NCBI GenBank assembly: GCA_030278895.1
Contig: JARXKK010000005.1
Span: 1 to 53,970, forward strand
From: Acidobacteriota bacterium
GTDB lineage: Bacteria; Acidobacteriota; Thermoanaerobaculia; UBA5066
Direction: 5' to 3'
Length of the DNA stretch: 53,970 nucleotides
Part shown: positions 1 through 53,422 of the stretch, one piece after another
Layout of the letters: each line of letters opens with the position of its first letter
Position numbering within the stretch: the first letter of the stretch is position 1
Position numbers and translations under genes: made by a program
The notes under the pieces: generated by a model
The model's database searches: none
What the model was told of the DNA's origin: nothing
What the model saw: the letters and a program-made list of their open reading frames with translations, nothing else

Positions 1-445
1 GCCGCGGAATCCGCTTCGCCAGCGCCGCGACGTGCGCGCGCTGCGAGCGCTCGGCGTCGAGGAGGACGAAGCCCGCGGCGCCGCACTCCGTGCCCTTCTC
101 GATCGCCCATTCGATTCGCGCAGGCTCCGCGCACGCGAGGAGGATCGTGACGCGGTTGGCAGACTCGCCGGGAAGGGGAAGAGAAGAGGAAGAGGAGGAG
201 GAAGAGAAGATTTGCTTAGAAGGTAGGAGGACTATGGCCGCGCCGCCGCGCACGAGGCGCGCCGGGGCCCGTGCGCCCTTTCCGTCGAGCGCGACGACCT
301 CGTCGCCGTCGCGCAACCGGCGGGAGCGGACGTGTTCTCTTTCTTCCTTTCTAAGAAGAATTTCGGCCTCTTCGGACGATCCCAGCCGGGCAGCCAATTC
401 AGGGACGAGAAGCCGCGGCGGCCGCGCGAGCGGGTTCTCAGCCAT
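1..445 (-). CDS. rsmE: 16S rRNA m3U1498 methyltransferase RsmE (3' end runs off the window)
   Basis: Not in the ORF track; manual translation from ATG at 445 gives ...EHVRSRRLRDGDEVVALDGKG...RIEWAIEKGTECGA..., typical RsmE motifs; follows prmA as in the canonical dnaJ-prmA-rsmE order. Confidence 0.85.
   Translation of the reverse strand, partial: MAENPLARPPRLLVPELAARLGSSEEAEILLRKEEREHVRSRRLRDGDEVVALDGKGARAPARLVRGGAAIVLLPSKQIFSSSSSSSSLPLPGESANRVTILLACAEPARIEWAIEKGTECGAAGFVLLDAERSQRAHVAALAKRIPR
201..364. repeat. Convergent pair of the dispersed GAAGATTTTCTTAGAAGG-type motif, inside rsmE
   Basis: GAAGAGAAGATTTGCTTAGAAGG at 201-223 and reverse copy CCTTTCTAAGAAGAATTTC at 346-364. Confidence 0.65.
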
Positions 446-1286
446 TAGAAGAAATCCAGGCTGTCCCGAGCCACTCGCTCTCCAGAATCGAACGGACCTC
501 CCGGAAACCCTCTCTCCGAAGCAAAGTCTCCCACTCCCCTCTTCTCTCGACGAGCTGCCCCGAACAGAGAAGCCGCCCACCGGGCGCGAGGCGGGAGTGG
601 AGCGCCGCGAGGAGAGGCGCGACCTCCTCGTGGATCATGTTCGCGACGATCACGTCGAAACGGGCGGTACCGCGCAGCGCCTCGAGAGGCCCCGCGAACG
701 TCGAAACGCGCGCGATTGCGTTCGCGCGCGCCTGGTCGCGCGTCGCGAACGCGGCGTCGGGGTCGAGATCGAAGGCGACGACGTGCCGAGCACCCTCGAG
801 CGCGGCGACGAACGCGAGCGTCCCGGTCCCGCAACCCACGTCGAGGACGCGGGCTCCCGCGAGGTTCTCGGCGAGCAGCAGCCGCACCGCGAGCCGCGTG
901 GATTCGTGCGAGCCGGTTCCGAAGGCGCGGACGGCGGGGAGGAAGAGCCGGCGAACGCCGGGCGGCGAGGGCGTTGCGAGGCCGCCGTCGTGGGGGTCGA
1001 AGAGATAGCGCTCCACGAAAACGGCTTTCCGCAAGGCAGCCGACTCGGCGACCCAGTCGGTGGATTTTTCTTCGAAGGTGAGAAGGCCGGCAGCCCCGAG
1101 CTCCGCGAGCGACGCCAGCGCGGCCGGGACGTCCGCAGAATCGACCCAGACCGAGACACCGCCGTCAGGGGCCGCCGCAGACGAAAACTCCAATCCCCCT
1201 AAACCTTCTAGGAAATCTTCGTGCTCTTCGAACCTGGCGGCGAGCGCCGCGGGAACCTCGATGCGCACGGCGCGACCGTCGGTCAC
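438..1286 (-). CDS. prmA: Ribosomal protein L11 methyltransferase
   Basis: [10 protein letters not shown] motif, [12 protein letters not shown]-binding motif, DVIVAN; downstream of dnaJ. Confidence 0.9.
1063..1220. repeat. Convergent motif pair inside prmA
   Basis: GATTTTTCTTCGAAGG at 1063-1078 and CCTTCTAGGAAATCTTC at 1204-1220. Confidence 0.6.
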
Positions 1287-2407: not shown

Positions 2408-2430
2408 AGGCAACTGCACCAAACCCGAGG

Positions 2431-4281
<1,851 letters not shown>

Positions 4282-4299
4282 TTGGCGCCTCCTCGTTCC

Positions 4300-11127: not shown

Positions 11128-12006
11128 ATGCCGAAACGAGAGCACACGATCATCTTCCTGCCCCACGCAAAGGCGCGTTTTAGGCAGTTCCGTGTCTCGT
11201 CGCGCCTCCTGTGGATGCTGGGAGCGTGCTTCGGGCTGTCCGTTCTCCTCGGCGTGACCTTCACCGCGCTCTGGGCCCGCTCGATCCGGAAGAACAGTGA
11301 GGTCACCGCGATCCTGGCGGAGAACTCCGACCTCCGGTCGCGGGCGACGCTCACGAATACCCGTCTCGAGACGATCGAGAAGATGCTGGCCGAATTTGAG
11401 GACCGGACGCGCCGCCTGTCGATCGTGGCCGGGCTGTCGGCGGTTCGCGACCCCGGAATGGGCGGCGTCGGCGGCCTCTCCGCCGTACCGGTCAACCCCG
11501 CGGACTCCGTCGACTCCGGCCTGAGCGAGGCCGGGCGCCGGGGCGCGCTCATCTCCTCACGCCTGAAGCTCGTCGAAAAGAAGCTCTCCCTTCAGGCCGA
11601 TCAGCTCGCCCTTACGCCCACGATCGTCCCGGCCGCCGGCGTCCTCACGGCGGGCTTCGGGAGCCGCCCCGATCCGTTCACGGGTCACCTCGAGTACCAC
11701 CCGGGGATCGACATCTCGACACCGGCGGGAAACCGCGTCGTGGCGCCCGCCGCGGGCACGATCACGCGCGTCGGGTGGGACAAGGGCTACGGCCGTTTCG
11801 TCGAGATCGCCCACGGCTACGGCGTGACAACCCTTTTCGGACACCTGCAGACGGCGCGCGTCGCCGAGGGCCAGCGCGTCAGGCGCGGCGACCTCGTGGC
11901 GCTCGTGGGCTCCACGGGCCGCTCCACCGGGCCGCACCTCCACTACGAAGTGCGCACCGACGGCAAGCCCGTGAACCCGCTCGATTACGTCCTCAACGCC
12001 TTCTGA
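11128..12006 (+). CDS. M23 family metallopeptidase (TM anchor plus coiled coil)
   Basis: [33 protein letters not shown]; lies upstream of secA. Confidence 0.92.
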
Positions 12007-12033
12007 GCGCTACGCACTCCCGACCCCCCCGCA

Positions 12034-12063
12034 CTTTCTAAGAAATCTCTCTCTTTCTTCTCC
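12034..12063. repeat. Unpaired copy of the dispersed motif upstream of secA
   Basis: CTTTCTAAGAAATCTCTCTCTTTCTTCTCC, directly followed by extended -10-like TGCTAAACT (12064-12072). Confidence 0.65.
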
Positions 12064-16469: not shown

Positions 16470-17242
16470 GCCATCCAAGTCATCTGAGCGCGCCCTCCTT
16501 CAACGACCACTTCTCGGGCCATGCGGGCGACTACGCCCGTTATCGGCCCACGTATCCACCCGAGCTCTTCGACGCCGTTGCGGCTCTCGTCACGCGGCAC
16601 ACCCTCTGCTGGGACGCGGGCACCGGGAGCGGCCAGGCGGCCGGCGGCCTCGCCGGGCACTTCGCGGAGGTCGTCGCGACGGACGCGAGCGCAGACCAGA
16701 TCGCGCACGCGGCGCCGTACGAAGGCGTGAGCTACCGCGTGGCAGCCGGCGGGAATTCCGGGCTGGAAGACGCGTCCGTCGATCTCGTCACGGTCGGCCA
16801 GGCCGTTCATTGGTTCGATCAAGAAAGATTCTTCGATGAGGTCAGGAGGGTTACGGTTCCGGGGGGCGCCATCGCGGTATGGGCCTACGATCTCTTCGAG
16901 GTCCCGGAGTCGGCCGCGGTGGAGGAAGTCTTCCAAGCCTTCCACGCGTCCGTCGAGGCGTTCTGGCCCCCGGAACGCGCCCTGGTCGCTCGCCGCTACG
17001 CCGATCTCCTGTTCCCGTTCGAAGAAATCCCCGTCCCGCCCGTCACGATGGCGGCCGCATGGAACCTGGAACGGACTCTCGGCTACCTCTCGACGTGGTC
17101 CGCCGTGAAGCGCTGCGCGAAGGAAACCGGCCGCGACCCGATCGCCGAGTTCGCGCCGCGCTTCGCCGCCGCGTGGGGCGATCCCGCCGCGCCGAAGACG
17201 TTCTCCTGGCCTCTCATCCTCCGCGCGGGACGGATCGTCTGA
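16466..17242 (+). CDS. Class I SAM-dependent methyltransferase
   Basis: [40 protein letters not shown]. Confidence 0.88.
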
Positions 17243-35039: not shown

Positions 35040-35459
35040 ATGGGAATGGATAGCTTCGGCGGGCGGCAGGACATGAAGAGCGACATCAACGTGACGCCGC
35101 TCGTCGACGTGTGCCTCGTCCTCCTCATCATCTTCATGGTCGTGACCCCGATGCTCCAGAAGGGCAAGGCGGTCATGCTTCCGCAGACCGAGCGGCCCGA
35201 CAAGAAGCCCGAATCCGACAAGGAGCTTCTCATCTCGGTGCAGGCCGACAAGACCATCTTCATCGACACGAAGTGGTTCCCGGACAAGGAATTTGCCGCG
35301 AAGATGAAGGAGATGGGCGAGCGCTCCTCGAACAAGGACGTGCTCATCAAGGCCGACCAGCGCCTGACCTTCGGTGACGTCAAGCACGTCATGGGAATGA
35401 TCAAGGACGCCGGATTCGAGCACGTGGGACTCATCACCGAGAAGAAGGCCGAGAAGTAG
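35040..35459 (+). CDS. ExbD/TolR family protein
   Basis: DINVTPLVDVCLVLLIIFMV. Confidence 0.92.
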   Translation: MGMDSFGGRQDMKSDINVTPLVDVCLVLLIIFMVVTPMLQKGKAVMLPQTERPDKKPESDKELLISVQADKTIFIDTKWFPDKEFAAKMKEMGERSSNKDVLIKADQRLTFGDVKHVMGMIKDAGFEHVGLITEKKAEK

Positions 35460-39911: not shown

Positions 39912-41050
39912 ACGAGGAGAGAAAAGACCTCGTTCGACAGGAGAACGCCGCGGCGCGTGAGGCGCACGCGGTCGGATTCTTCTTCGAGCAGTCCGGCAAG
40001 GAATGCGTCGTTCATGCGGGCGATGGAGTCGGGAGAGAGAGATTTTCGGATTTCTTCGAAAGTGGAAGAGGGGACGCCGCCCGACAGGCGCAGGCCCAGC
40101 ATCAGCCCCTCTTTCCTTCCAAGAAAATCCTCCTGGGGCTTTTCGGACGTTGCGACCGTCGATTCGCCCGCACGCGTGCGCCTCAGGTATTCGGTCAGCA
40201 TCCCCGTATTCGCCGTCCGGATTCTTCCGTCGAACGAATGCGCGCCGACCCCGAAGCCCAGTACAGGCGTCATCTGCCAGTACTTGAGGTTGTGGCGGCT
40301 CTCGAATCCCGGCCGCGCCCAGTTCGAGAGCTCGTAGCGCGGAAGACCCGCCGCCGTCAACCGATCGTCCACGGCCTCCCACAGGTCCGCCATCTCGTCG
40401 TCGTCCGGGAACAGCTCCGGCCGCTCCTTCTTCAGGGAAACGAGCCGCGGGGCCTTTTCCAACTCCAGGAGGTACACCGAAAGGTGGGAGATTCCACACG
40501 ACACGAGCCCGTCGACGCTTCCAAGAAGGCTCTCGAGCGTCTGGCCCGGGATGCCGATCATGAGGTCGGCCGAGACGTTTCCGAAGGTCCGGACGGCGGC
40601 CGTGACGGCGCGGCGCGCGGCCGCGGCGTCGTGGCGGCGCTCCAGCGGCACGAGCTCGGCGTCCACGAGGGACTGCACGCCGACGGATAGGCGATTGACG
40701 CCGATGTCGCGGAGCGCGGCCAGTTTCGAGGCGTCGATATCGTCGGGATTCGCTTCGGCCGTAATCTCCACATTCGAAGAAACTCCGAATATTTCTTCGA
40801 GTGAAGAGAGCACGCCGCCAAGCCTGCGCGCGTCGACGTAGCTGGGCGTTCCCCCTCCGAAGTAGACGGTGTCGAAGTCGAGCAGAGCGCCCGTCGCTTC
40901 CGTCCCCCTCGAGCGAATCTCCCTCTCTAACCCCTCAAAGAAATCTTCTTCCTCTCCTCTCCCCTCCAAAGCAATGAAAGAGCAATACGTGCACCTATGC
41001 GCGCAGAAGGGCACGTGAACGTACGCGCCCGGGGCCCGGGATTCGTTCAC
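39908..41050 (-). CDS. hemW: Radical SAM heme chaperone HemW (HemN-like)
   Basis: YVHVPFCAHRCTYCSF, YFGGGTPS, EANP, RLSVGVQS, YELSNWA...SRHNLKYW. Confidence 0.92.
   Translation of the reverse strand: MNESRAPGAYVHVPFCAHRCTYCSFIALEGRGEEEDFFEGLEREIRSRGTEATGALLDFDTVYFGGGTPSYVDARRLGGVLSSLEEIFGVSSNVEITAEANPDDIDASKLAALRDIGVNRLSVGVQSLVDAELVPLERRHDAAAARRAVTAAVRTFGNVSADLMIGIPGQTLESLLGSVDGLVSCGISHLSVYLLELEKAPRLVSLKKERPELFPDDDEMADLWEAVDDRLTAAGLPRYELSNWARPGFESRHNLKYWQMTPVLGFGVGAHSFDGRIRTANTGMLTEYLRRTRAGESTVATSEKPQEDFLGRKEGLMLGLRLSGGVPSSTFEEIRKSLSPDSIARMNDAFLAGLLEEESDRVRLTRRGVLLSNEVFSLLV
39974..40133. repeat. Convergent motif pair plus an extra copy inside hemW (3' part)
   Basis: GGATTCTTCTTCGAG 39974-39988; GATTTCTTCGAAAG 40049-40062; reverse CCTTCCAAGAAAATCCTCC 40115-40133. 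Confidence 0.5.
40787..40967. repeat. Convergent motif pair inside hemW (5' part)
   Basis: GAATATTTCTTCGAG from 40787; reverse CCCTCAAAGAAATCTTCTTCCTCTCCTCTCCCCTCC 40932-40967. Confidence 0.55.
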
Positions 41051-41706
41051 GCGCCGTTCGTCAGGAGCTGCTTGAGCCGCTCGTCCCGCCCTTCGGCATC
41101 GGCGTCCCCGAGCCGCGCCGCGAGGAGCCGTTCGACGTACTTCCCGAGAATGTCCACTTCGAGGTTCACGAGGTCCCCCGGCTTGCGCTCGCCGAGCGTG
41201 GTCGCCGTGAACGTATGCGGGATGACCGCCACGTCGAAACTTTCCTCGCCGAGCGCCGCGATCGTGAGAGAAATTCCGTCCACCGAAATCGAGCCTTTTT
41301 CGACCGCGTACCGCGCCAGGGCTCCCGGCAGCGCGAACGTGAACGTCCACGAGTCGCCCGCCTTCGCAACGGCGAGTACCCGTGCGGTTCCGTCCACGTG
41401 GCCGGCCACGACGTGGCCGCCGAGCCGGTCTGAAGCCCGGAGCGCGCGTTCGAGGTTCACGCCCGAGCCCGGAGACAGGCCTCCCAGGGCCGAGCGCGAG
41501 AGAGTCTCCGGCGAGACGTCGAAGCAGAGAGGCTGACCGAGTCCCGCCTGCGGCACGACCGTCAGACACACTCCGGAAACGGCGATGCTCTCCCCCACGG
41601 ACACATCCCCGAATTCCGGCGGACGCTCGACGGCAAGCACGGCGCCGGCCGCCCCGGACCGGAGCGACACGACGCGGGAGACGGCGGCGACCAGGCCGGT
41701 GAACAT
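41047..41706 (-). CDS. ribE: Riboflavin synthase alpha chain
   Basis: MFTGLV, GESIAVSGVCLT, VNLERAL...RLGGHVVAGHVDG, KGSISVDGISLT. Confidence 0.95.
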   Translation of the reverse strand: MFTGLVAAVSRVVSLRSGAAGAVLAVERPPEFGDVSVGESIAVSGVCLTVVPQAGLGQPLCFDVSPETLSRSALGGLSPGSGVNLERALRASDRLGGHVVAGHVDGTARVLAVAKAGDSWTFTFALPGALARYAVEKGSISVDGISLTIAALGEESFDVAVIPHTFTATTLGERKPGDLVNLEVDILGKYVERLLAARLGDADAEGRDERLKQLLTNGA

Positions 41707-41715
41707 GCCGCGATC

Positions 41716-42849
41716 CTACCCGACGACGGGCGCGAGGAGCCGTCCCGAGACCCTGAGGTCGGCTCCGATACGGACGGCTTCGAGATCCCCCAGCCGGTGC
41801 GCGTCGGCGAGCGACGCCGGTCCTGTGCCGGCGAGCGGCGAATGCGCCGAGGCGCCTCCGACGAGCAGCGGCGCGACGTAGGCGGTCACCCTGTCCACGA
41901 GGCCCGCGGAAAGGAATGACGCGGCGGTCACGCCACCGCCCTCGACCAGCAGGGACCGCACCTCGAGGGCATGAAGAGCCCCGAGAAGAGCCGCGAGGTC
42001 GACGCTTCCCGCGCCTCCACCCGGGGCCGGCCCGGAGAAGACATGAACGCCCCTCTCGAGGAACGGCGCGAGCCGCGGATCGCCGGCCGGCACCGCCGTC
42101 ACGAGCCAGACCTCGCCTCCGGCCGCGGAGAACACCCGGGCCGTGGCCGGAACGCGGAGCGCGCCGTCCAGGACGAGCCGCCGATGCGGCGTGATGGCCG
42201 AGGAGAGAGCCAGGCGGCGGGTCAGGAGCGGGTCGTCCGTGAGGACGGTCCCGGCGCCGACGAGGATCGCGTCACACTCCTCGCGCAGGAGGAGAGCGTC
42301 GTTCCGGGCCGCTTCGCCCGTGATCCACTTCGACTCTCCCGTCCGCGTCGCGATGCGCCCGTCCAGCGACGCGGCCCACTTGACGTGGACGAAAGGACGC
42401 CGGTCGCGAATGGACTTCAGGAACGCCTCGTTCAGCGTCTCGGCCTCGTCCGCGAGCGCGCCGACCAGCACCTCGATGCCGCGCTCCCTGAGCCGGCGAA
42501 TGCCGCGTCCCGCGGTCCGTGGGTCCGGATCCTCCGTCGAGCACACGACGCGCGACACGCCGGCCGCGATGAGCGCCTCCGAGCAGGGAGGGGTGCGCCC
42601 GAAATGGGAGCACGGCTCGAGGTTGACGAGCAGCGTCGCCCCTTTCGCGCGCGCACCGGCCGCCGCGAGAGCGACGGCTTCGGCGTGCGGCCCCCCGGCG
42701 TGCGCGTGCGCTCCCTCCCCGACCACCCGGCCGGCCGCGTCCACGAGCACCGCCCCGACCCGCGGGTTCGGCGCGGTCGAAAAGCGTCCCCGGCCGGCGA
42801 GCTCGAAGACCCGGCGCCACAGGACGTCGAGCGGGGCGCCTTCAGTCAT
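41716..42849 (-). CDS. ribD: Riboflavin biosynthesis deaminase/reductase RibD
   Basis: PNPRVGA, HAE, LEPCSHFGRTPPC, ASLDG, LLVEGG. Confidence 0.95.
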   Translation of the reverse strand: MTEGAPLDVLWRRVFELAGRGRFSTAPNPRVGAVLVDAAGRVVGEGAHAHAGGPHAEAVALAAAGARAKGATLLVNLEPCSHFGRTPPCSEALIAAGVSRVVCSTEDPDPRTAGRGIRRLRERGIEVLVGALADEAETLNEAFLKSIRDRRPFVHVKWAASLDGRIATRTGESKWITGEAARNDALLLREECDAILVGAGTVLTDDPLLTRRLALSSAITPHRRLVLDGALRVPATARVFSAAGGEVWLVTAVPAGDPRLAPFLERGVHVFSGPAPGGGAGSVDLAALLGALHALEVRSLLVEGGGVTAASFLSAGLVDRVTAYVAPLLVGGASAHSPLAGTGPASLADAHRLGDLEAVRIGADLRVSGRLLAPVVG

Positions 42850-43780
42850 CCACGAGCGCTTCCGCGAAGGCAGCCGCGTCGAAGTCCAAAAGGTCGTCGG
42901 CGGTCTCTCCCACGCCCACGTAACGGACCGGCAGCGTCAGCTCGCGCACGATTGCCAGGATCACGCCGCCCTTGGCGGTCCCGTCCATCTTCGTGAGGAC
43001 GAGGCCGGTGACACCCGCGGTCTTCGTGAACTCCCGCGCCTGCGCGATGCCGTTCATTCCCGTCACGGCGTCCAGAACGAGGAGGACCTCGTGCGGCGCG
43101 CCGGGGACGCTCCGGGCGGCGACCCGCCGGATCTTCGAGAGCTCCTCCATGAGGTTGTGCTTCGTGTGGAGCCTTCCGGCGGTGTCCACGAACAGCAAGT
43201 CGGCTTTCCTTGCGAGCGCGATCGCGCAGGCGTCATGGACGACGGCGGCGGGATCGGAGCCCGCCTTGTGCTTCACGAGGGGGATCTGGAGGCGCGTGGC
43301 CCAGACCTCGAGCTGTTCGACAGCCGCCGCGCGGAACGTATCGGCCGCGGCGAGCACGACCGTTTTCCCGGAGGCCGTCGCACGGGCCGCGAGCTTGGCG
43401 GTCGTCGTCGTCTTTCCGGAGCCGTTGACCCCCACCATGAGAATCACGCGGGGAAGGCCCGCCGACCCCGCCACCTCGGGTCCCGTGACGGACAACCGCC
43501 TGGTGATCTCCGCCTTCAGGACGCGCCGCACGACGTCCTGCTCGGCCGCGTCACGGCGCCCGGCCTCCGCCTTCACGGCGGCAACGAGCTCGGCGGCCGT
43601 GGCGGGCCCGACGTCAGCGGCGAGGAGGCCCTCCTCCAGCGCATCGAGCGCCGCGGGATCCGGCTCGAAAGTCGCCTTCACGGCGCTCCCCATCTTCGCG
43701 AGGAGCTCCGTGTGCGTCATGAAGAGCCCGCGCTTCAGGCGGGCAAAGACGGACGGACTCTCGCGCTCGCCGGTGGCCAT
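42842..43780 (-). CDS. ftsY: SRP receptor FtsY
   Basis: GVNGSGKTTT, DTFRAAA, DTAGR, TKMDGTAKGG. Confidence 0.96.
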   Translation of the reverse strand: MATGERESPSVFARLKRGLFMTHTELLAKMGSAVKATFEPDPAALDALEEGLLAADVGPATAAELVAAVKAEAGRRDAAEQDVVRRVLKAEITRRLSVTGPEVAGSAGLPRVILMVGVNGSGKTTTTAKLAARATASGKTVVLAAADTFRAAAVEQLEVWATRLQIPLVKHKAGSDPAAVVHDACAIALARKADLLFVDTAGRLHTKHNLMEELSKIRRVAARSVPGAPHEVLLVLDAVTGMNGIAQAREFTKTAGVTGLVLTKMDGTAKGGVILAIVRELTLPVRYVGVGETADDLLDFDAAAFAEALVDD

Positions 43781-43808
43781 CGGATCCGAGACTAGCAGGA
43801 CCGGTCGA

Positions 43809-44159
43809 TCAGGAGATTTCGGCGGCGAGGCGTACGCGGGCCGCTTCGAGGCGGGGGCGCACCACGTGCAGCTGGCCCGTCGCGTCGAAGACGACGAGGA
43901 CGAAATAGCCCGCCTTGACGTGCGTCGTCAGGATCCGGCGCTTCTCGAACTCGAACGTGAGATCGGCGATCTCGCCGAGGGAGGACCGCTCCGCCGCGCG
44001 CCGCAGCTCCCCCATCCAGACGGACTGATAGGCCCCGAGGACCTCCGTCGCGGCGGCGTCGCCGATCCGCGCGATGATCTCGCCCTGCGAATCGATGAAG
44101 GCGGCCCCGAGGGCGCCCGGCGCGTCGAGGAGGCCTTCGAGGGCATCGGCAAAGCTCAT
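43809..44159 (-). CDS. Roadblock/LC7 domain protein (MglB/MglC-like)
   Basis: 116 aa; PGALGAAFIDSQGEII...GYFVLVVFD pattern of the roadblock fold. Confidence 0.75.
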   Translation of the reverse strand: MSFADALEGLLDAPGALGAAFIDSQGEIIARIGDAAATEVLGAYQSVWMGELRRAAERSSLGEIADLTFEFEKRRILTTHVKAGYFVLVVFDATGQLHVVRPRLEAARVRLAAEIS

Positions 44160-44956
44160 CGTTCGACTCCCGGAGCCGCGGGCTCGTTCGCGAGAAATCG
44201 GCGCGCACGGCGTCCTTCGTCGCTTTCCGGCGCGGCGCTGACCGTGCGCTGCATGTAACGCGCCGCGAGATCGCGCCGGCCGTTAGCCAGGAGACAGACC
44301 GCGGCCTGATAGTTCGCCACCGGATCGCGGGGATCGTTCTTCAGCACCGTCAGAAAATCCTCGAGCGCGCCCTTGAAGTCGTCGAGCTTCACGCGGGCGA
44401 GACCCCGCGCGCGGAACGCGCGGTCGTTGTCCGGCGAGTCGGCGAGCGTGAGCGAGAACTCGCGCTCGGCATCCCGCCAGGACTCGCGCCGGCTGTAGAG
44501 GAGCCCGAGGTTGTAATGCGCGTTGACCTTCTCCGGGGACGGCGGGCCATCGAGGACGGCCTGGAAATCCGTTTCCGCGTCGTTGTAGTGTCCCGCTTCC
44601 AGCTGTGCCACACCTCGGTTGTTCCGCGCCTCGACGAACGTGCCGTCGAGGTGGAGCGCGTCGGAAAAGGCGCTCACAGCGCCCTTGTAGTCCTTCTTGT
44701 AGAGGAGAGCGAGGCCGAGCGCGTTGGGCACGTGCGGATCCCGAGGCGAGCTCGTGCGCGCGCGCTGAAGAAGCGCGATGGCTTCGTCCGCCCGGCCCTC
44801 CCGCAGCATCGCGAGGCCGCTTCGGTAGTCGACAAGGTCCGCGAGACCGGGGTTCTCCTTCGGAGGCATCGAGGCGCTCCCGCATCCGGCGAGCCCCGCC
44901 AGCGCAACGAGAGCGGCACACGAGAGGCGGAGGCCCGCGGCCTTCGACGCTCTCAA
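44156..44956 (-). CDS. TPR lipoprotein (PilF/PilW/Tgl pilotin-like)
   Basis: Lipobox LAGC; TPRs with NALGLAL, EARNNRG, AHYNLG. Confidence 0.8.
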   Translation of the reverse strand: MRASKAAGLRLSCAALVALAGLAGCGSASMPPKENPGLADLVDYRSGLAMLREGRADEAIALLQRARTSSPRDPHVPNALGLALLYKKDYKGAVSAFSDALHLDGTFVEARNNRGVAQLEAGHYNDAETDFQAVLDGPPSPEKVNAHYNLGLLYSRRESWRDAEREFSLTLADSPDNDRAFRARGLARVKLDDFKGALEDFLTVLKNDPRDPVANYQAAVCLLANGRRDLAARYMQRTVSAAPESDEGRRARRFLANEPAAPGVER

Positions 44957-46683
44957 GCAGAGGCCTTCAGAGGAACCTCTTCGCCCAGAAACTCGAAGTC
45001 ACCGGAGGACCACGCCTTGTCGAGCGCGGCGATCACCGCCGGGTCGAACGACTTTCCGGCGAACGACATGATCTGCGTGATGACGTAGTTGATGGGCATC
45101 GCCTTCTGGTAGGGGCGCGTCGTCGTCATCGCGTCGAACGTGTCCGCGACGGCCACGACCCGCGCGACCATCGGGATCCCCTCGCCCTTCAGTCCGTCCG
45201 GATAGCCGCCCCCGGACCACTTTTCGTGGTGGTGCTTGATGCCCGGGATCACGTCCTTGAGCTGCGGAATCTGCCCCATGATGAGCGCGCCCTTGGCCGG
45301 GTGCGTCTTCATGATCTCGAACTCCTCGCTCGTGAGGGCGGTGGGCTTCCGGAGGATGCGGTCGTCGATGCCGATCTTCCCGACGTCGTGAAGCAGGGCC
45401 GACAGGCGCACGACGCGCACCTCTTCCGGCGAGAGGTCCATGTGGCGCGCCAGAACGACGGCGTAGCGCGCGACGCGCTCGGAATGCCCGCGGGTGTACG
45501 GGTCCTTCGCGTCGATGGCGGCCGCAAGCGTCTTCACCGAATTGATGAACAGCTCCTGGTTCTCCTTCGCCGCGAGCTTCAGCTTGTCGACCGACTTCTC
45601 GATCGAGTCGGACATCGAGTTGAACGTCTCGGACAGCTCGGCGAGCTCCCGGACGCCCCGCACCCCGACGCGCTGCTTGAAGCTGCCCTCCGCGATCGAC
45701 CGCACCTTGTCGACGAGCTCGACGAGCGGATGCGCGAGGAGGCGAGCCGCCACGAGGGCCACGATCGCCGCGAAAAAGAGTGAAAACACGGCGATCTTGG
45801 AGGACTCTCTCTTCATCTGGGACACCGACGCATAGGCGGCCGCTTCGTCCTTTTCGACGATGACGCCCCAGTCGGGCGTCGGGATCGTCGCGAGAGTGCC
45901 GAGGACCCGGTGCGCCGTCTTCCCTTCGCCACGCATGTACGACTTCGTGATCCTCACGGGATGCGCGATGAACTCGCTCACGAGGTCGAGCTGGTGCACG
46001 TCCTTCGACTTGAACGCCGAGGCGTCGCTCGTCAGGATGAGCGAGCCCGAGCGGTCCACGACGTACGCGAGGACGCCGCCCCGCCCTTCTTCGTCGAGCT
46101 TCGCCTTGATGGGCCTGAGGGAGAGCAGCGCCTCGACGACGCCTATCGGCTCCTGGCCCTCCGAGGGCCTCACGGGCACGGCGAGGACCAGCGCGCCGTC
46201 CGGATAGGATTTCGGGAAGATCGGGTCGGCCACGTAGGACTCGCCGCGCATCGCGGCGTTGTAGGCCTGCCGGAGCGGGCGCTCGACGTCCGGATCGAGG
46301 GCGCCTCCGTCGGCCGCCGAGGCGACGCCGTCCCGATCGAGCGCCCTGAGAACCGGGAAGCTCGATTCGGCGTCGGCGTACTCCCGGAGAAGCTGCTTCT
46401 TGGACAGGTAGAAGAAGGGATCCGTGGACATCGAGCTCGCGAGCCGGATCCCGTCGGCGATCTTCTTGAGCTGCGACTGCGCGTTCGTGATGTACGTGTC
46501 GAAGCTCTCGGCGAGCGTCACGGAGCTGTTCTTCAGGTACTTCTTCTCGGCCGTCTCCAGGGCATCGCGGTTGATGCCGATGAGGCTGAAGTGCAGGAGG
46601 GCGAGCGGGACGATGGAGACGAGGATCAGCGCGACGAGCAGAGCCGTCACGATCCTCAGGCGCGGAACCCGGGCGACACCCAT
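44953..46683 (-). CDS. Membrane-bound HD-GYP phosphodiesterase with Cache-like sensor and HAMP domains
   Basis: Two TM segments flanking a periplasmic domain, HAMP, DPYTRGHSERV, HDVGK, HHEKWSGGGYP, DTFDAMTTTRPY. Confidence 0.92.
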   Translation of the reverse strand: MGVARVPRLRIVTALLVALILVSIVPLALLHFSLIGINRDALETAEKKYLKNSSVTLAESFDTYITNAQSQLKKIADGIRLASSMSTDPFFYLSKKQLLREYADAESSFPVLRALDRDGVASAADGGALDPDVERPLRQAYNAAMRGESYVADPIFPKSYPDGALVLAVPVRPSEGQEPIGVVEALLSLRPIKAKLDEEGRGGVLAYVVDRSGSLILTSDASAFKSKDVHQLDLVSEFIAHPVRITKSYMRGEGKTAHRVLGTLATIPTPDWGVIVEKDEAAAYASVSQMKRESSKIAVFSLFFAAIVALVAARLLAHPLVELVDKVRSIAEGSFKQRVGVRGVRELAELSETFNSMSDSIEKSVDKLKLAAKENQELFINSVKTLAAAIDAKDPYTRGHSERVARYAVVLARHMDLSPEEVRVVRLSALLHDVGKIGIDDRILRKPTALTSEEFEIMKTHPAKGALIMGQIPQLKDVIPGIKHHHEKWSGGGYPDGLKGEGIPMVARVVAVADTFDAMTTTRPYQKAMPINYVITQIMSFAGKSFDPAVIAALDKAWSSGDFEFLGEEVPLKASA

Positions 46684-47777
46684 CCGACCCTATTGTAACG
46701 CCCCAGCGCCTCATCGAAAGCCCTGGCGAGCTCGGCCGTCTCCACCCTCACGAGCATCGGCCGGCCGGGCCCGGCGAGGAGCACGGCGTTCAGGCCCGCG
46801 CGATCCGCCTTCTTGTCGGCCATGAGCAGGCCCGGCATTCCGCGAACTGCCGCCGGGGAAGGGACGGGCGGCGACACGAGCCGCATGACGCGCTGCATCA
46901 GAGCGTCCGCGGTTCGAGGCGCGAGTCCCGCACGCGCGACCGAAAGTCGAAGGGCGGCCAGGAGCCCCCACGCGACGGCCTCGCCGTGCTGCAAACGATG
47001 GCCCGACGCCGTCTCGAGGGCGTGCCCCACCGTGTGGCCGAGGTTCAGGGCGGCTCTCTCCCCCGTGCGTTCGAATGGATCCCGCCCGACGGCCCGCGCC
47101 TTCACGGCGAGTGAGCGGCGGACGGCCTCCGCCACCGCGGTGGGCTCGCGCGCGGCCAGCGGAACCTCGAGGCGCGCCATCGCGCGGTGGAAGGCCGCGT
47201 CGAGGAACGAAGTCTTCACGACCTCCGCGAGGCCGGAGCGAAATGCGCGAAGGGGAAGCGTCTCGAGCATCGCCGTGTCGACGACGACGAGACGGGGCGC
47301 ATGAAAAGCCCCTACGAGGTTCTTGCCGGAGGGAAGATCCACGGCCGTCTTGCCGCCGAGCGCGCTGTCGCATGCCGCGAGAAGCGTCGTCGGCGCCTGA
47401 ACGACGGGAACACCGCGGAGCGCGAGGGCGGCGGCGAGTCCCGCGACGTCCCCCACGGTGCCGCCTCCGAACGCGACGACTCCCCCGTCGCGCCGGAGGC
47501 CGCGCCGCATCAGCTCCTGAAGCAGCTCGCCAAGAACGTCCCAGGTCTTGGCGGCCTCGCCGTCGGGGACGAAGAGGGGGTTTTTGCTTAAGACCCTCCC
47601 GGCGCCTCCAGCCAGAAGCAACTGGCCATGGAGTTTGAAGATTTTCTTAGAGGTGATGAGAAACCAGCGGCCCTGCGCGATGGCAGCGAGGCGCTTGTCC
47701 AGCCCGGCGTACGCCCCTTCGCCGACGAAGACGTCGGTTCGAGCGCCGGCCGCGACGAAGGAAAAGTCCCTCTTCAC
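46656..47777 (-). CDS. aroB: 3-dehydroquinate synthase
   Basis: GGGTVGD, PTTLLA.CDSALGGKT, GKNLVGAF, LNLGHTVGHALE, HGEAV. Confidence 0.92.
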   Translation of the reverse strand: MKRDFSFVAAGARTDVFVGEGAYAGLDKRLAAIAQGRWFLITSKKIFKLHGQLLLAGGAGRVLSKNPLFVPDGEAAKTWDVLGELLQELMRRGLRRDGGVVAFGGGTVGDVAGLAAALALRGVPVVQAPTTLLAACDSALGGKTAVDLPSGKNLVGAFHAPRLVVVDTAMLETLPLRAFRSGLAEVVKTSFLDAAFHRAMARLEVPLAAREPTAVAEAVRRSLAVKARAVGRDPFERTGERAALNLGHTVGHALETASGHRLQHGEAVAWGLLAALRLSVARAGLAPRTADALMQRVMRLVSPPVPSPAAVRGMPGLLMADKKADRAGLNAVLLAGPGRPMLVRVETAELARAFDEALGRYNRVGWVSPGFRA

Positions 47778-47802
47778 CTTCTAAGAAATCTTCTCTTTTC
47801 TC
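47637..47802. repeat. Convergent motif pair spanning the aroB start
   Basis: GAAGATTTTCTTAGAGG 47637-47653 and CCTTCTAAGAAATCTTCTCTTTTCTC 47777-47802. Confidence 0.75.
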
Positions 47803-47819
47803 AACAAAACGTATTCTCT

Positions 47820-49583
47820 TCAGCCCTCGGTCTTCGGCGGCTTCGCGAGCGCGATGTGGAGCTCGGCGAGCTGCTCGGGCGCGACGGGATTCGGGCAATC
47901 CGTCATGAGATCCGTGCCGGAGGCCGTCTTTGGAAACGCGATGACGTCGCGGATGGACGTCGAGCCGGTCAGGATCATCAGCATGCGGTCGAGGCCGAGC
48001 GCGATTCCTCCGTGCGGCGGCGCGCCGAAGCGGAACGCCTCGAGCAAAAAGCCGAACTTCGCGCGCGCCTCCTCCGGCCCGATGCCGAGCCTGGCAAAGA
48101 TGCGCGACTGCACGTCGGAGCGGTGGATCCGGATCGACCCGCCCCCCAGCTCCATGCCGTTCAACACGACGTCGTACGCGCGCGCCTTCACGCGGCCGGG
48201 ATCGCTCTCGAGGAACGGAAGGTCCTCTTCGCGCGGCGACGTGAACGGGTGGTGCGTCGCGTACCAGCGCGCGTCCTCCGGGTGCCATTCGAGGAGCGGG
48301 AAGTCCGTGACCCAGAGGAAGTCGTAGCGCCCTTCGGGAATCAGCTTCTCCTCGCGGGCGATCTGGAGACGGAGCGAGCCGAGGAAATCGAAAACTGACT
48401 TCGATTTTCCAGCGGCAAGAAAGACGAGGTCGCTCTCGCCCGCACCGAACGAGGCGCGCATGCGTTCGATCGCAGCGTCGTCGAAGAATTTCTTAGAGTT
48501 GGAATTCCAGCTGCCGGGACCGGCCGTCTTCACCCAGAAAAACCACTCGACTCCCGCCGCCCGCGCCCCCTTCTCGATGTCGTCGAGGCGCTTGCGGGAA
48601 AACGAGGCACCTCCGGGCACGCACAGGCCCTTGACTCTTTCAACCTTCGAAGAAATCTTCTCTTCGAACCCCGGGAAATTGCCGAGCTCGAGCCCGAACC
48701 TCGTATCCGGCCGGTCGATCCCGAAGCGTTCCATGGCCTCGTCGTACGTCATCCGCCGGAACGGGGCCTCGCACGCGATACCCCACTTCGGGAAGACGCG
48801 GGTGAAAACCTTCTCGATGAGGGCGTACACCGTCTCCTCCGTCGGGAACGAGATCTCGACGTCGACCTGCGTGAACTCCAGCTGCCGGTCGGCGCGCAGG
48901 TCCTCGTCGCGGAAGCAGCGCGCGATCTGGTAGTAGCGCTCCAGCCCCGCGACCATGAGGAGCTGCTTGAACAGCTGCGGGGACTGCGGGAGCGCGTAGA
49001 ACTCACCCTCGTGGATTCGCGACGGAACGAGGAAGTCGCGCGCGCCCTCCGGGGTCGACTTCGTGAGGATCGGCGTCTCGACGTCGAGGAAGCCCTCCTC
49101 GTGCAGGACCTCGCGGATCGCCATCGTGACCGCGCTGCGCGCGACGAACCGCTGTGTCATCTCCGGGCGGCGCAGGTCGAGGTAGCGGTACTTGAGCCGG
49201 AGGTCCTCGGCGGCCTTGATCCCGTCCTCGATCGGGAACGGCGGCGTGTCCGCGCGGTTCAGGATCACGAGGGCCGTCGCGCGCACCTCGATCGCACCGG
49301 TGGGAAGGTCCTTGTTCACGGCGTCGGCATCGCGGGCGACGACGCTTCCCGTGACGTCCACGACGAACTCGCTTCGAAGCTCCTTGGCCAGGGCGAGGAG
49401 GGCGGCGTCGGGGATGAACCGGGCGTCGAAGACGGCCTGGGCGAGGCCCGAGCGGTCGCGGAGATCGATGAAGACGAGCTCGCCGTGGTCGCGGCGGCGG
49501 TTGACCCAGCCCATGAGGCGCACGGTCTTTCCGACGTGCTCGGGCCTGAGGGTTCCGGCGGGTGTTCGTGAGGGAGCGGACAT
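47820..49583 (-). CDS. aspS: Aspartate-tRNA ligase (possibly non-discriminating Asp/Asn)
   Basis: [51 protein letters not shown]; start MSAPSR. Confidence 0.96.
48483..48665. repeat. Convergent motif pair inside aspS (insertion-domain region)
   Basis: GAAGAATTTCTTAGAG 48483-48498 and CCTTCGAAGAAATCTTCTCTTC 48644-48665. Confidence 0.7.
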
Positions 49584-49594
49584 GGCCGCGGATC

Positions 49595-50866
49595 TTACAG
49601 ACGTGCCTGGAGCACGGCGGCGAGGCCCTCGCGCGGCAGCTCTTCCTGAGACCGCGTCGCGAGCGTCTTGACGACGACGGTTCCGCGAAGACCTTCCTCC
49701 TGACCGACGAGGACGGCAATGACTGCTCCGGATTTCTCGGCTGACTTGAGGGCCTGGCCGACACCCCGGTGCCCGGAATGGAAATCGACTGGGAGACCCG
49801 CCCCGCGAAGGAGCCTTGCGATTCCCCATGCGTCGGGCATATCTGCGCTGCCGACCGGAACGACCGCGATCGCGCGCATGCCTTCGAGGGCCTTCTTCCG
49901 GAAAGGCTCGGGCAGAACGTCGACGAGGCGATCCTCGCCGATGGCGAATCCGATCCCGGGAGTTTTCGGCCCTCCCAGATCGGAGATGAGCTTGTCGTAA
50001 CGGCCGCCGCCGAGAAGAGCGTTTTGGGCGCCGAGGCCCTCGGCGGTCACCTCGAAAACCGTACGGGTGTAGTAGTCGAGACCCCGGACCAGAAGAGGAT
50101 CTTCTTTAAAAGTGACCTTGCTGGCGACCAGAAGCGCTTTGAGTTCGCGGTGGTGCGCATCCGAGGCGGGATCCAGCGTTGGCAGAAGATCGACCATCTT
50201 CGGAAAGGTCTCCGAAGCGACGAGCTGCTTGACGGCAGGATCCTTCGAGTCGAGGACCCGCAGCGGGTTGTCGGCGAGGCGCCGCCGGTCGTCCTCGCCG
50301 AGCGTCTTCTCATTCGAAGAGAAAAACGTCCTCACGGCCTCGACGTACGCCGGCCGCGTGGCTTCAGTCCCGACCGAATTGATCGAAACCGAAAGGCCCG
50401 TGAAGCCAAGACGTCCGAGGAAATCGAACAGCATGACGATGACCTCGGCGTCCATCACCGCCGTCGGGTCGCCAAGCACTTCCGCGCCGATCTGCCGGAA
50501 TTCCCTGTATCGGCCCTTCTGCGGCCTCTCGTACCGGAACTGCGGACCCATGTAGTAGAGCTTCCAGGGCCGCCCCGCCTGCGCGAGAGAGTGCTCGACG
50601 TAGGCGCGTGCCACTCCCGCCGTGTTCTCGGGCCGGAGCGTGACGGAACGGTCGCCCCGGTCCGTGAACGTGTACATCTCCTTGTGGACGATGTCGGACG
50701 ACTCCCCCACGCTCCGCACGAAGAGCTCCGTGGACTCGAGGACCGGAGTGCGGATCTCATCGAATCCGTAGAGCGCGAAGACGTCGCGGGCCGCCGCCTC
50801 CACACGATTCCAGACGCGCGTATCGGGGGGCAGGAGATCCCGCGTGCCCTTGACGCTGGTGATCAC
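49595..50866 (-). CDS. hisS: Histidine-tRNA ligase
   Basis: [46 protein letters not shown]. Confidence 0.96.
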
Positions 50867-51384: not shown

Positions 51385-51631
51385 CGGAATCGCACGATAC
51401 CAAAGCCGAAAACGGCGGGATTCGGACCGCTGCACAGGCAACTGTGCGAAGCGGAAAAACCCATGTAAAAACGGCGCTTCAGGCCTGTTTTTGGTATGCA
51501 ACGCACAGGCTTTTCCACAGATCCGTTGAAATCTACTAAATAGCCTGAAACCATACGTTTACGCACCTGAAAAGCACAATCTACGGGGAATTCCTAGCGA
51601 AACAATCTCATCGTCGAAAAGGCGGCCGACC
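51385..51631. promoter_or_regulatory. AT-rich intergenic region with DnaA-box-like sites; candidate oriC
   Basis: TTTTCCACA 51511-51519 matches TTWTNCACA; degenerate boxes at 51428-51436, 51444-51452 (reverse), 51499-51507; AT-rich tract 51526-51582. Confidence 0.45.
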
Positions 51632-53422
51632 TCACGCCTTGCGCCGGACCGCGGGACGTCCTGGGCCGAAGTTCGCGAAAACGCCGAGGAGCTGCCGAGC
51701 CTGCGCCCGCGCCGCTTCCCCGACCGAAGCACCGGCGAGGAGCGCGGCGACGGCCTCGACGCGTCCCCCGCCGTCGAGCGCCTCCACGCGCGTCCGGGTA
51801 CGGCCCTTCGCCGCTTCTTTCGAAACGGAGAAGTGCCGCTCCCCGGCCGCCGCCACCTGCGCGAGATGCGTGACGACGAGGATTTGCTCCTTCGCCGCGA
51901 GGCCCCGCAGCTTCCGGCCGACGGCCTCGGCCGTAGCGCCTGAGACTCCCGCGTCGACCTCGTCGAACACGAACGTCCGGACCGGTCCGCCTCGGCGCGG
52001 GGGGCCACCCTCCTCGCTTGCCGCCTCTTCCGCGGCGAGGGCCGCCGCGAGCGCGAGCTGGACGCGCGACAACTCGCCGCCCGAGGCGATCTTCTGGAGC
52101 GGACGAGCCGGCTCTCCGGGATTCGGAGCGAAGACGAACCCCACCTGATCGATTCCGTGCGCGCCGAACGAGACGCCCCGGCCTCCCGCCGCGAAGCGGC
52201 TCTCGTCCTCCTCGTGGCGCGAGACGGCCGCCGAGAACGACGACTTCAGGAACGCGAGGTCGCGGAGATGCGTCTCCACGGCGCGGCCGAGCCGGGGCGC
52301 GGCAGCCTCGCGGGCGGCGGACAGGTCCAGCGCGGCCTTCCGGTAGGCCGCGAAGGCTCTCTCCGCGGCGTCCTCCGCCTTTCGGATGGTGCCCTCGAGG
52401 TCGGCGAGCTCGTCCCTCTCGCGGCCGAGGGCCTGGCGTTTCTCCAGCACTTCCGCGAGCGTCGGGCCATATCTCCTTTTCAATTTGGCGAGGGCGTCGA
52501 GGCGTTCCGCGACGAACGCGGCCCTCGCGGGATCGGCTTCGAGGCCCTCGAGGTCGCGGGAGGCTTCGAAAGCGGCCTGGACCATCGTCTCGATTGCGCC
52601 CGCAAGCGCCGCGCTCCGGGAGGCGTACGAAGAATCGATTTCTTCGAGCTGTTGAAGAGCACGCCGCGCGGCCGAAGCCGCCGCGATCGCTCCATTCTCG
52701 TCGGACTCCAGCGCGCCCGTGGCCGCCGAGAGAAGCTGGCCCACCTTCTCGACGTTCGCCAGTTTCTTCCTTTCAGAAGAAATCTCCTCGTCTTCCCCTT
52801 CTTTAGGCTCGACCTTGTCGATCTCCGCCATCTGGAAGTCGATGAGCTCGAGCCGCTTCGCGCGATCCGCCGCGGAGCCTTCCAGGCGTTCGACCTCTCC
52901 CCGGCGCGCGCGCCACTCGCGAAAGAGCGCGGCCGCCGCCGCCGACTTCTCCTCGAGGCCCGCGTAGCGGTCGAGGAGCTGGCGCGGCGCGTCGGGATCG
53001 AGGAGATCCCGCGCCTCCGCCTGCCCGTGGAGGACGAGGAGGCGTGGCGCGATCTCCTGCAGCGTCTTCAGGGCCGCCGGCGATCCGTTCACGAGGAGAC
53101 GGCCCTTGCCCCCGGCAGCCACCTCGCGCCGCACGACGACCTCGAACGCCCCGCGGCCTCCCTCCTCGAGGAGCCCGGCGTCCGTCAGGATCGCCCGCGC
53201 CTCCGGATCGTCGCAGTCGAAGGCGCCTTCCACGACGAGCCGCTCGGCGCCTCCCCGCACGAGCGCGGGGTCGGCGCGCCCGCCCGCGAGAAGCGTCAAG
53301 GCGTCGACGACGAGCGACTTGCCCGCTCCCGTCTCTCCCGTCAGGACGGTCAGGCCTTCGGCGAACGCCACCTCGACGTCCTCGAGGACCGCGAGGTCAC
53401 GGACGCGGAGCGACGTGAGCAC
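51632..53422 (-). CDS. recN: DNA repair protein RecN
   Basis: LTGETGAGKS, LHGQ, coiled coil, PNPGEP..PLQKIASGGELSR, FDEVDAGVSG, VTHLAQVAA. Confidence 0.96.
   Translation of the reverse strand: MLTSLRVRDLAVLEDVEVAFAEGLTVLTGETGAGKSLVVDALTLLAGGRADPALVRGGAERLVVEGAFDCDDPEARAILTDAGLLEEGGRGAFEVVVRREVAAGGKGRLLVNGSPAALKTLQEIAPRLLVLHGQAEARDLLDPDAPRQLLDRYAGLEEKSAAAAALFREWRARRGEVERLEGSAADRAKRLELIDFQMAEIDKVEPKEGEDEEISSERKKLANVEKVGQLLSAATGALESDENGAIAAASAARRALQQLEEIDSSYASRSAALAGAIETMVQAAFEASRDLEGLEADPARAAFVAERLDALAKLKRRYGPTLAEVLEKRQALGRERDELADLEGTIRKAEDAAERAFAAYRKAALDLSAAREAAAPRLGRAVETHLRDLAFLKSSFSAAVSRHEEDESRFAAGGRGVSFGAHGIDQVGFVFAPNPGEPARPLQKIASGGELSRVQLALAAALAAEEAASEEGGPPRRGGPVRTFVFDEVDAGVSGATAEAVGRKLRGLAAKEQILVVTHLAQVAAAGERHFSVSKEAAKGRTRTRVEALDGGGRVEAVAALLAGASVGEAARAQARQLLGVFANFGPGRPAVRRKA
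52637..52804. repeat. Convergent motif pair inside recN
   Basis: GATTTCTTCGAG from 52637 and CCTTTCAGAAGAAATCTCCTCGTCTTCCCCTTCTTT 52769-52804. Confidence 0.55.

Follow-up and report, generated by a model that had tools for sequence, protein, structure and literature searches.

A long, genus-specific DNA word written in place and in facing pairs inside ordinary genes of uncultured Acidobacteria

In a single genus of uncultured soil and sediment Acidobacteria (Thermoanaerobaculia), known only as metagenome bins, we find a long AT-rich DNA word that recurs throughout a GC-rich genome, that is arranged in facing inverted pairs lying mostly inside ordinary genes and that, as judged from alignments with relatives lacking it, was made in place by point substitutions. 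The stretch of DNA from which the analysis set out, referred to below as the window, is the entire 53,970-nucleotide contig C5 (JARXKK010000005.1) of a 243-contig, 3,465,259-base Acidobacteriota assembly with 68.1% G+C (GCA_030278895.1, here G000). An initial annotation, made by eye from the letters of the window, had reported a purine-rich motif recurring in both orientations within housekeeping genes, and had missed the facing inverted pairs that are its most distinctive feature, three further copies, and its genome- and genus-wide range.

Results

A 32-bp asymmetric word is hyper-abundant in the genome

When the occurrences are aligned, the consensus reads, on the pyrimidine strand, cccCTCTTCaCC, TTC[T/G/A]AAGAAA, an optional extra A, TCTTC and a TC-rich tract of variable length. 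The word is ~32 bp long, asymmetric and AT-rich in a host genome of 68% G+C, and has an information content of 27.4 bits. Its core, TTC-N-AAGAAA, is not its own reverse complement, and has pyrimidine-rich flanks on both sides on the same strand. TTCTAAGAAA is the most frequent AT-rich 10-mer of the genome, with 149 copies against ~0.3 expected from base composition, and is followed in abundance by variants carrying G or A as the fourth base. A scan of the whole genome with a position weight matrix (PWM), trained on the same genome that it scans, yielded 677 copies at ≥16 bits (348 on the plus and 329 on the minus strand) against 16 in a shuffled control, and 568 against 6 at ≥20 bits; the control is one shuffle only, in which 3-base blocks were permuted inside 300-bp windows.

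Twenty-two matches at ≥16 bits lie inside the window, among them copies at 16820, 17004 and 35284 that go beyond those listed in the initial annotation. The recurrence seen by eye is real, since 19 of its 20 positions are matches (18 at ≥16 bits, and 52637 at 13.4 bits); the remaining one, 39974, has no match and may be the TC-rich outer flank of the arm at 40043. The 17-mer given there has five window sites at ≤3 mismatches, with 0.06 expected, and none of 100 shuffles reached five. Pfam matches bear out the names given to the genes concerned (RsmE-like, PrmA, RarA/MgsA, asparaginase II, HemN/HemW-like, AroB, AspRS, HisRS and RecN), and dnaK, secA, guaB and hppA, each identified by position only, hold no match at ≥16 bits, again as described. 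Full-text literature searches with the core 10-mer and 12-mer, the only way in which a prior description was sought, gave 46 and 2 hits respectively, all of them unrelated.

Some copies, or arms as we call them from here on, carry two tandem cores 26-33 bp apart, the second often reading TCCGA[A/G]GCAAA, which may be a diverged tandem copy of the core. This second word and hexamer runs (TCCGAA)n are also seen outside many arms (e.g. C11:16784, C107:10608, C88:3813), and AGCAAA is found in 48 outer flanks of arms genome-wide against 1.5 expected. In alignments, the outer GA/TC tracts of the arms expand and contract by slippage.

Arms face each other in pairs

Neighbouring arms follow a strict order. 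Where a minus-strand copy is followed by a plus-strand copy, 191 of 203 neighbours lie within 300 bp of each other, at a median distance of 122 bp, whereas the same is true of only 11 of 140 plus-then-minus neighbours. Among strong arms (≥20 bits), 418 of 568 (~74%) have a partner at 40-300 bp on the inner side and 28 have one on the outer side. On the top strand, a unit therefore consists of a purine-rich arm, 40-300 bp of unrelated native GC-rich sequence and a pyrimidine-rich arm; being an inverted repeat, it reads purine arm first on the bottom strand too. Genes were called with our own codon-usage open reading frame picker, so that start codons, and what counts as intergenic, are approximate. 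On these calls, 146 of the 191 pairs fall within a single gene, spread evenly along it, while 26 lie between genes and 19 straddle a boundary. The same order holds in other genomes of the genus, where 29 loci (445 kb) contain 240 copies; of the close pairs among them, 93 follow the natural order and 3 the reverse one. Each genome has about 190-340 two-armed units, at a density of ~1 pair per 10 kb.

Spacing within pairs shows neither 10-11-bp helical phasing nor a 3-bp (mod-3) periodicity. Partner arms are no more alike than shuffled ones (17.30 against 17.13 +/- 0.16 identical positions of 32, a value reached by 299 of 2000 shuffles), and since pair similarity is at the shuffled level, with no excess of G.U, each arm appears to be read independently of its partner. 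Two further arrangements were considered and rejected: a filament model, as weak sites are not in surplus inside pairs (0.0014-0.0016 per position, against 0.0007-0.0033 outside), and an evenly spaced organiser, as loci are not evenly spaced along the genome (coefficient of variation 1.06, above the 0.95 +/- 0.06 obtained under random placement).

The word was written in place rather than inserted

Five window genes (hemW, recN, aroB, aspS and hisS) were compared with orthologues lacking the word, 58-77% identical, in the public records L028, L029 and L035; the in-place result rests on these records, and no claim depends on the motif-less genomes G019 and G024, which are unpublished. All 12 arms in coding sequences (CDSs) that score ≥13 bits align with outgroup residues one for one, with only two arm residues opposite a gap; in the hemW pair at 40043-40135, both arms align with the outgroup residue for residue in this way. 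Identity to the outgroup falls from 1475 of 2190 residues (67%) elsewhere to 24 of 82 (29%) in arm cores (Fisher p = 6e-12). Thus AroB has SKKIF for SAAVF/SAPVL, AspRS has NSKKFF for NAKKML, and HemW has EDFFEGLE for KEYFDALL. The initial annotation had named, as the observation that would count against pressure on the DNA, the presence of the same peptides in orthologues without the motif; since arm peptides differ from those of motif-less orthologues, that objection fails. The ancestral sequence often already held part of the word (AAGAA-like, Glu/Lys-rich), so that proto-sites appear to have been improved.

The interior of a pair, the sequence between its arms, is native: outgroup proteins align with it, and in 141 of 161 cases it occurs nowhere else in the genome. 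Fourteen of the 20 non-unique interiors come from one family of Ser/Thr kinase paralogues. At least 14 such paralogues (on C28, C30, C4, C166, C13, C36 and C84) have a pair exactly 93 bp apart, at the conserved kinase motifs LPE.F...E and IY.FEE; these pairs are either older than the expansion of the family or the outcome of repeated conversion of the same proto-sites. Contig ends are not enriched for copies (53 against 47.5 expected within 500 bp). These comparisons show that the word arose where it now stands, through point substitutions in ordinary genes and spacers.

The pressure acts on the nucleic acid and is shared across the genus

Most copies (517 of 677, 76%) lie in called CDSs, and the other 160 in the 7% of the genome that is not called as gene. 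All six frames are occupied (sense 122, 40 and 102; antisense 65, 79 and 109). Among the 160 intergenic copies, 104 have T as the fourth core base. In the frame where T would create TAA, 116 of 122 copies have G or A instead, and so do 75 of 79 in the frame where the complement of T would create TAG.

Conservation was tested within one 18-kb region, using 22 loci from other species of the genus. At third codon positions where G000 has A or T, agreement with the other species is 0.65 over the 37 positions in arm cores and 0.23 over 571 background positions; rare codons such as AAT, TCT and AAA are fixed in the alignments while adjacent synonymous sites vary, and the only arm base that varies freely is the degenerate core position. 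Because all six frames are occupied, stop codons are avoided, arm peptides diverge from the outgroup, copies far exceed the shuffled control and A/T third positions agree, we conclude that the pressure is on the nucleic acid and not on the protein, as the initial annotation had proposed from the varied frames and strands of its copies.

Seven of 11 window sites tested reach ≥16 bits in at least 88% of alignable genus loci. Of the other four, three have a patchy distribution (5/18, 12/18 and 12/22), and one has been lost by deletion from 4 of 19 loci. In outgroups, none of 11 site-by-locus cells exceeds 12 bits. The hemW arm at 40043 is kept at ≥18 bits in 17 of 17 alignable genus loci and its right-hand partner (40103) at ≥16 bits in 15 of 17; further along the gene, the arm at 40920 is kept in 18 of 18, and those at 40759 and 40784 are patchy. 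The two aspS arms each score ≥16 bits in 20 of the 22 genus loci and are missing from three outgroup loci, and the recN arm at 52759 is kept in 16 of 17 alignable loci. The hisS arm at 50092 is present in 12 of 22 loci, which points to turnover. The word thus can be shown, from these alignments, to be maintained at orthologous places across the genus and to be paid for in amino-acid changes and rare codons.

Copy density drops from 0.279 to 0.090 per kb with rising G+C at third codon positions, and is lowest in the most codon-optimised genes. A copy is carried by 273 of 2960 called genes (about 9%). The densest regions hold ordinary genes only (hemD, hemB, an aminotransferase, dapB, dapA, a decarboxylase, FG-GAP proteins and an MFS transporter), and a special class of carrier genes was rejected on this ground. 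In a minority of cases arms do become co-opted at gene starts and ends: 61 stop codons have a purine arm 0-60 nt downstream of them, and 33 start codons have one 0-45 nt upstream.

The word begins sharply at one genus

With one mismatch allowed, all 18 of the other genus genomes scanned carry the 17-mer, and not one of 12 genomes representing two further families in the order does. The 12-mer occurs in 45-138 copies in each of 10 of 10 other genus genomes, and in 94 in G000; it was not found in six genomes from four sister genera of the same family, and each of the remaining genomes in a sample of 140 others from the class has no more than two copies, which is the level of a reversed-pattern control. 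No alternative recurrent AT-rich word was found in motif-less relatives, where AT-rich islands are few (~73 kb from nine outgroup loci, a small sample).

The transposase family Y1_Tnp (PF01797, RAYT/IS200) has 1-10 matches each in 25 of 26 genomes of the sister genera, none in G000, and is present in 2 of 14 other genus genomes, a distribution that is the inverse of the motif's. An exact-pattern scan of viral contigs gave 26 with a match, 25 of them with a single one, and no phage with dispersed copies was seen; one viral contig (L103:1060-1478) carries four exact 17-mer copies in a tandem array with a 132-135-bp period.

Arms in the window

The arms of the window are collected in Table 1. At 40759-40815 in hemW, two arms stand back to back (pyrimidine then purine, 25 bp apart) and form a near-palindrome. 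The predicted GTG start codon of aroB falls inside the spacer arm at 47765-47796, which adjoins a purine tract of variable length in an alignment of 20 sequences, and which is the arm missing from 4 of 19 alignable loci (L014, L016, L018 and L026). The aspS-aroB spacer around it (47740-47830) differs strongly in length among species through expansion of its GA tract, and is duplicated in some. Our own gene caller cut rsmE short at an arm (called 2-316 only, in a region of 2-580), and arms were seen to encode runs such as SSSSSSSS.

Table 1. Arms and pairs of the word in the window, with PWM scores.
Feature	Coordinates	Strand	Scores and Pfam matches
Facing pair in rsmE-like gene	203-367; purine arm 203-235, pyrimidine arm 335-367		32.1 + 32.9 bits; Methyltrans_RNA
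Facing pair in prmA	1059-1223; arms 1059-1090, 1192-1223		29.3 + 28.1 bits; PrmA
Single arm directly downstream of M23 peptidase gene (11128-12003)	12022-12053	+	29.6 bits; Peptidase_M23 (gene)
Facing pair	16820-17035; arms 16820-16851, 17004-17035		17.8 + 26.9 bits
Strong single arm directly past rarA stop codon (rarA called 18805-20190)	18740-18772	-	43.6 bits
Pair in rarA	19461-19572; strong arm 19461-19493, weak arm 19541-19572		40.4 + 13.2 bits; MgsA_C, AAA
Single arm in asparaginase II gene	23629-23661	-	21.5 bits; Asparaginase_II
Single arm	35284-35316	-	20.0 bits
Facing pair in hemW-like gene	40043-40135; arms 40043-40074, 40103-40135		30.9 + 30.9 bits
Extra arm and facing pair in hemW-like gene	40759-40951; extra arm 40759-40790, pair 40784-40815/40920-40951		22.9, 34.8, 22.9 bits
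Pair across aroB start	47634-47796; 47634-47666 in aroB, 47765-47796 in aspS-aroB spacer		27.1 + 42.1 bits
Facing pair in aspS GAD domain	48481-48663; arms 48481-48512, 48632-48663		17.8 + 37.6 bits
Pair in hisS	50092-50331; arm 50092-50124, weak partner 50299-50331		19.3 + 15.4 bits
Pair in recN	52631-52790; weak arm 52631-52662, arm 52759-52790		13.4 + 22.4 bits

The assembly has artefacts of its own. Many 100-N scaffold gaps carry identical sequence on both sides (e.g. C6:8510, C9:43817, C13:35914 and C30:9127); these are overlapping contig ends joined with N, and not biology. The overlap between the end of C222 and the start of C111 is likewise an assembly artefact.

Discussion

A possible self-DNA tag read as a pair

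The reading that we put first, while giving it somewhat less than even weight, is that the arms are read as DNA by a sequence-specific protein, that the pair is the working unit, and that it probably serves as a tag of self DNA kept by selection or an uptake-like drive, by analogy with known systems. On this proposal, a reader protein would be present in the genus, and the sister genera would lack it or have one of other specificity; it would recognise the double-stranded DNA of each arm. The facing pair would act as a unit either through two flexibly joined protomers or through a machine travelling along the DNA, which would meet a purine arm and then a pyrimidine arm whichever direction it came from. 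The fixed order of the arms, together with their loose and unphased spacing, fits both of these forms. The tag would mark the organism's own DNA in DNA exchange or recombination, as with uptake signal sequences and, according to recent reports, the HIP1 (highly iterated palindrome) word, so that better-armed alleles would be preferentially transmitted or kept, and preferential transmission of this kind could write a long word into essential genes. Long words are documented to enter essential genes in two ways only, through an uptake-type drive (PMC2817400) and through whatever keeps HIP1 in place (PMC5861425). We rank the self-DNA tag first, and an architectural role second, because the word shares population-level signatures with uptake sequences and HIP1, namely clade specificity, occurrence on both strands and in all frames, placement at poorly conserved positions, intergenic excess and lower numbers in codon-optimised genes.

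Several points weigh against the self-DNA tag. A protein that binds the arms was not identified, and the full comparison of gene content between the genus and its sisters was not made. Conservation alone cannot separate functional selection from drive. The strict facing order at 40-300 bp is unexplained by an uptake model, because uptake sequences work singly, and the lack of helical phasing argues against rigid looping between two bound protomers. The density of ~1 pair per 10 kb lies below the uptake-sequence counts tabulated in PMC2817400. Competence genes offer little help: the presence of comM in the window was noted by the initial annotation as compatible with competence without proving it, but neither comM nor ComEC is discriminating, because ComEC was detected in 40 of 41 genomes of the family whether or not they bear the motif.

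It is also conceivable, at perhaps a quarter of the total weight, that the word belongs to an undescribed genome-wide system, in which a sequence-specific protein or machine reads ~340 head-to-head two-armed sites that evolution has placed in the organism's coding sequences; this would be a new class of chromosomal signal, with the pair rather than the word as its unit. Such a paired signal would be, for example, a paired polar barrier, a loader for a DNA-tracking motor, or the docking site of a domesticated paired-end-binding enzyme.

A possible role in chromosome architecture

A role in chromosome architecture, which we regard as a possible but minority explanation, would make the arms polar sites for a nucleoid protein, or barriers to a DNA-tracking machine, held by ordinary selection and not by drive. 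The facing pair looks alike from both directions, and in this it may be analogous to opposed Ter sites or paired boundary elements, although Ter is the only polar barrier of this sort, specific to a sequence, that we know of in bacteria. A strict head-to-head arrangement whose spacing is loose and without helical phase fits two independent sites acting on travelling machinery, and, with the purine arm first on either strand, a tracking enzyme would meet the arms in the same order; the conservation of sites across the genus is also as expected. An argument for HIP1 as a signal for nucleoid structure is reported in PMC5861425. Against an architectural role stand the uneven spacing of clusters described above, the small share of called genes with a copy (273 of 2960) and the way in which density tracks codon usage. 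Moreover, either order of a close pair would block both directions, so that the 191:11 bias is not predicted.

Unlikely alternatives: recombination, RNA structure, mutational bias and mobile elements

The fixed polarity of inverted arms around any cargo is a signature of transposon ends and invertons, and the two tandem cores of some arms recall multi-site transposon ends. It is nevertheless improbable that the arms are paired ends for a recombinase or domesticated transposase acting on intragenic invertible or excisable segments. Inversion in silico leaves the reading frame open in 40% of the 146 intragenic pairs, compared with 59% for 2872 random controls, interiors code for native protein that is conserved, their uniqueness (141 of 161) implies that nothing is mobilised, and contig ends are not enriched for copies. 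No transposase-like gene was listed between far-apart arms, although family searches were not run on those genes. Contigs from four public runs were mapped to 39900-49800, and DNA contigs from two of these (X1 and X3) cross the hemW, aroB and aspS pairs, all arranged as in the reference. Among the joints listed for the mapped contigs, whose sides are 20-29 letters long, two abut the arm near 47768-47770; we read these as assembly-graph joins at shared words. Assembled contigs are silent on rare inversions, because they drop rare variants. A contig of a relative from an RNA library (record 15, 34 differences) spans the aspS pair, a weak hint that nothing is cut out there.

Similarly doubtful is an RNA feature, in which the purine and pyrimidine arms would form a long-range stem that affects mRNA decay or translation, with the purine arm resembling a Shine-Dalgarno sequence. 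A rule acting at the mRNA level would be expected to give purine-then-pyrimidine order in any transcript, the consensus arms are complementary, and the 33 starts downstream and 61 stops upstream of purine arms would fit. The pyrimidine arm is also loosely like the 3' end of the genus 16S rRNA. However, arms do not covary (17.30 against 17.13 +/- 0.16, as above), and the compensatory base pairs of structured RNAs are not seen: 2517 of 4672 arm positions (54%) would pair, 1154 are transversion mismatches, and sense-strand G.U (518) is not in excess over A.C (483; p = 0.28). Rfam matches in the window are limited to tRNA, and pairs are evenly distributed along genes. For want of covariation, G.U bias and an Rfam match, an RNA stem was rejected as the selected feature. 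The single Rfam match at the gathering threshold is a tRNA gene at 22484-22567 on the minus strand. As to the ribosome, the 16S 3' end and first spacer bases of one genome (G014, L090:3040-3070; GGATCACCTCCTTTCTAAAGGA) resemble the pyrimidine arm (CTTCACCTTCTAAGAAA) loosely and with gaps; the likeness is probably chance, and it was dropped as an explanation.

Still less credit is due to the idea that the word is a by-product of biased mutation or repair (for example, repair that depends on context, or slippage), which nothing reads and which serves no function. The outer GA/TC tracts do visibly change by slippage, and repair bias is known to distort the frequencies of short words, but a 27-bit asymmetric consensus with strict pair polarity far exceeds known repair contexts, and conservation extends to saturated synonymous positions. 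Finally, the arms are most unlikely to be the decayed ends or in-frame insertions of a small mobile element, whether a miniature inverted-repeat transposable element (MITE), a doublet of repetitive extragenic palindromic sequences (REPIN) or one like the Rickettsia palindromic elements (RPE), since, for all their inverted arms, high copy number and variable purine/pyrimidine tracts, and for all that the rsmE arms looked insertion-like by eye (not by a tool) next to an E. coli sequence, this origin is largely refuted by the alignment of 12 of 12 tested arms at outgroup-homologous positions with two residues of length change, by native and unique interiors, by the scarcity of Y1_Tnp (the RAYT family; missing from G000 and found in 2 of 14 other genus genomes) and by contig-end counts.

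Comparison with known systems

As to the analogues named in the initial annotation, uptake and chromosome-organisation sequences are the nearest known kinds, and the word would be a putative member of either. The uptake signal sequences (USS) of Pasteurellaceae and the DNA uptake sequences (DUS) of Neisseriaceae are, like the word described here, clade-specific, over-represented words that occur hundreds to thousands of times, on either strand and both inside and outside coding sequence. PMC2817400 places uptake sequences at poorly conserved positions, common in coding regions and relatively enriched between genes, and describes them as thought to accumulate by point changes under drive. Their unit is the single copy, close pairs being overlapping terminators: in Haemophilus (PMC7811141), opposed USS pairs are found at gene ends in either order, where the copies overlap at 0-14 bp from each other, and uptake does not increase when a fragment has two copies within 100 bp. 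Here, in contrast, 418 of 568 strong arms are partnered in facing pairs of one order, and 146 of 191 pairs are intragenic.

HIP1 of cyanobacteria is described in PMC5861425 as hyper-abundant and as conserved both inside reading frames and between them, no role for it having been found at the peptide or RNA level; it is an 8-bp palindrome, tied to methyltransferases, phylum-wide and periodically spaced. The word shares the hyper-abundance and the conservation of sites in reading frames across genomes, but unlike HIP1 it is no short perfect palindrome, being ~32 bp long and asymmetric, confined to a single genus, paired and not evenly spaced. The function of HIP1 has been debated for decades, and newer reports link it to transformation and gene transfer.

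Resemblance to mobile and invertible elements is more superficial. REPINs are extragenic, with each arm a hairpin, whole units copied and a RAYT gene present. They too number in the hundreds, have two inverted arms and a spacer, and are stable at orthologous places; the word differs in lying mostly in CDSs (517 of 677), in its unique native interiors and in the lack of the cognate Y1 transposase (no PF01797 in G000). Rickettsia palindromic elements are likewise repeats within many unrelated housekeeping genes, read through in frame, but they are insertions that add residues, whereas the arms substitute residues one for one; unlike in a MITE or RPE, the 12 arms compared are not insertions relative to empty orthologous sites, and the whole unit is not repeated in 141 of 161 cases. 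Invertons are locus-specific inverted repeats around a short segment, sometimes intragenic, with a working invertase, while here one consensus is common to hundreds of loci and inversion would break more frames than chance.

Implications

A hyper-abundant, clade-specific word kept up at the level of DNA is a known kind of signal. To our knowledge, the intragenic facing pairs, the length and asymmetry of the word and the phylum in which it occurs are matched in no known case. For annotation, the arms matter because in ~9% of genes they give rise to low-complexity peptides, patches of rare codons, stop codons and start contexts, all of which can mislead gene callers, as in rsmE.

We know of very few forces that can write long DNA words into essential genes in the face of selection on the protein, uptake sequences and HIP1 being the textbook cases. 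The word described here is a third and independent case, in another phylum (Acidobacteriota), with a sharp onset at one genus and with strict facing pairs at 40-300 bp, an architecture found in neither of the other two. Because the onset is so sharp, the factor responsible should be findable by comparing gene content with the sister genera, and the pairing of the arms places a strong constraint on the mechanism.

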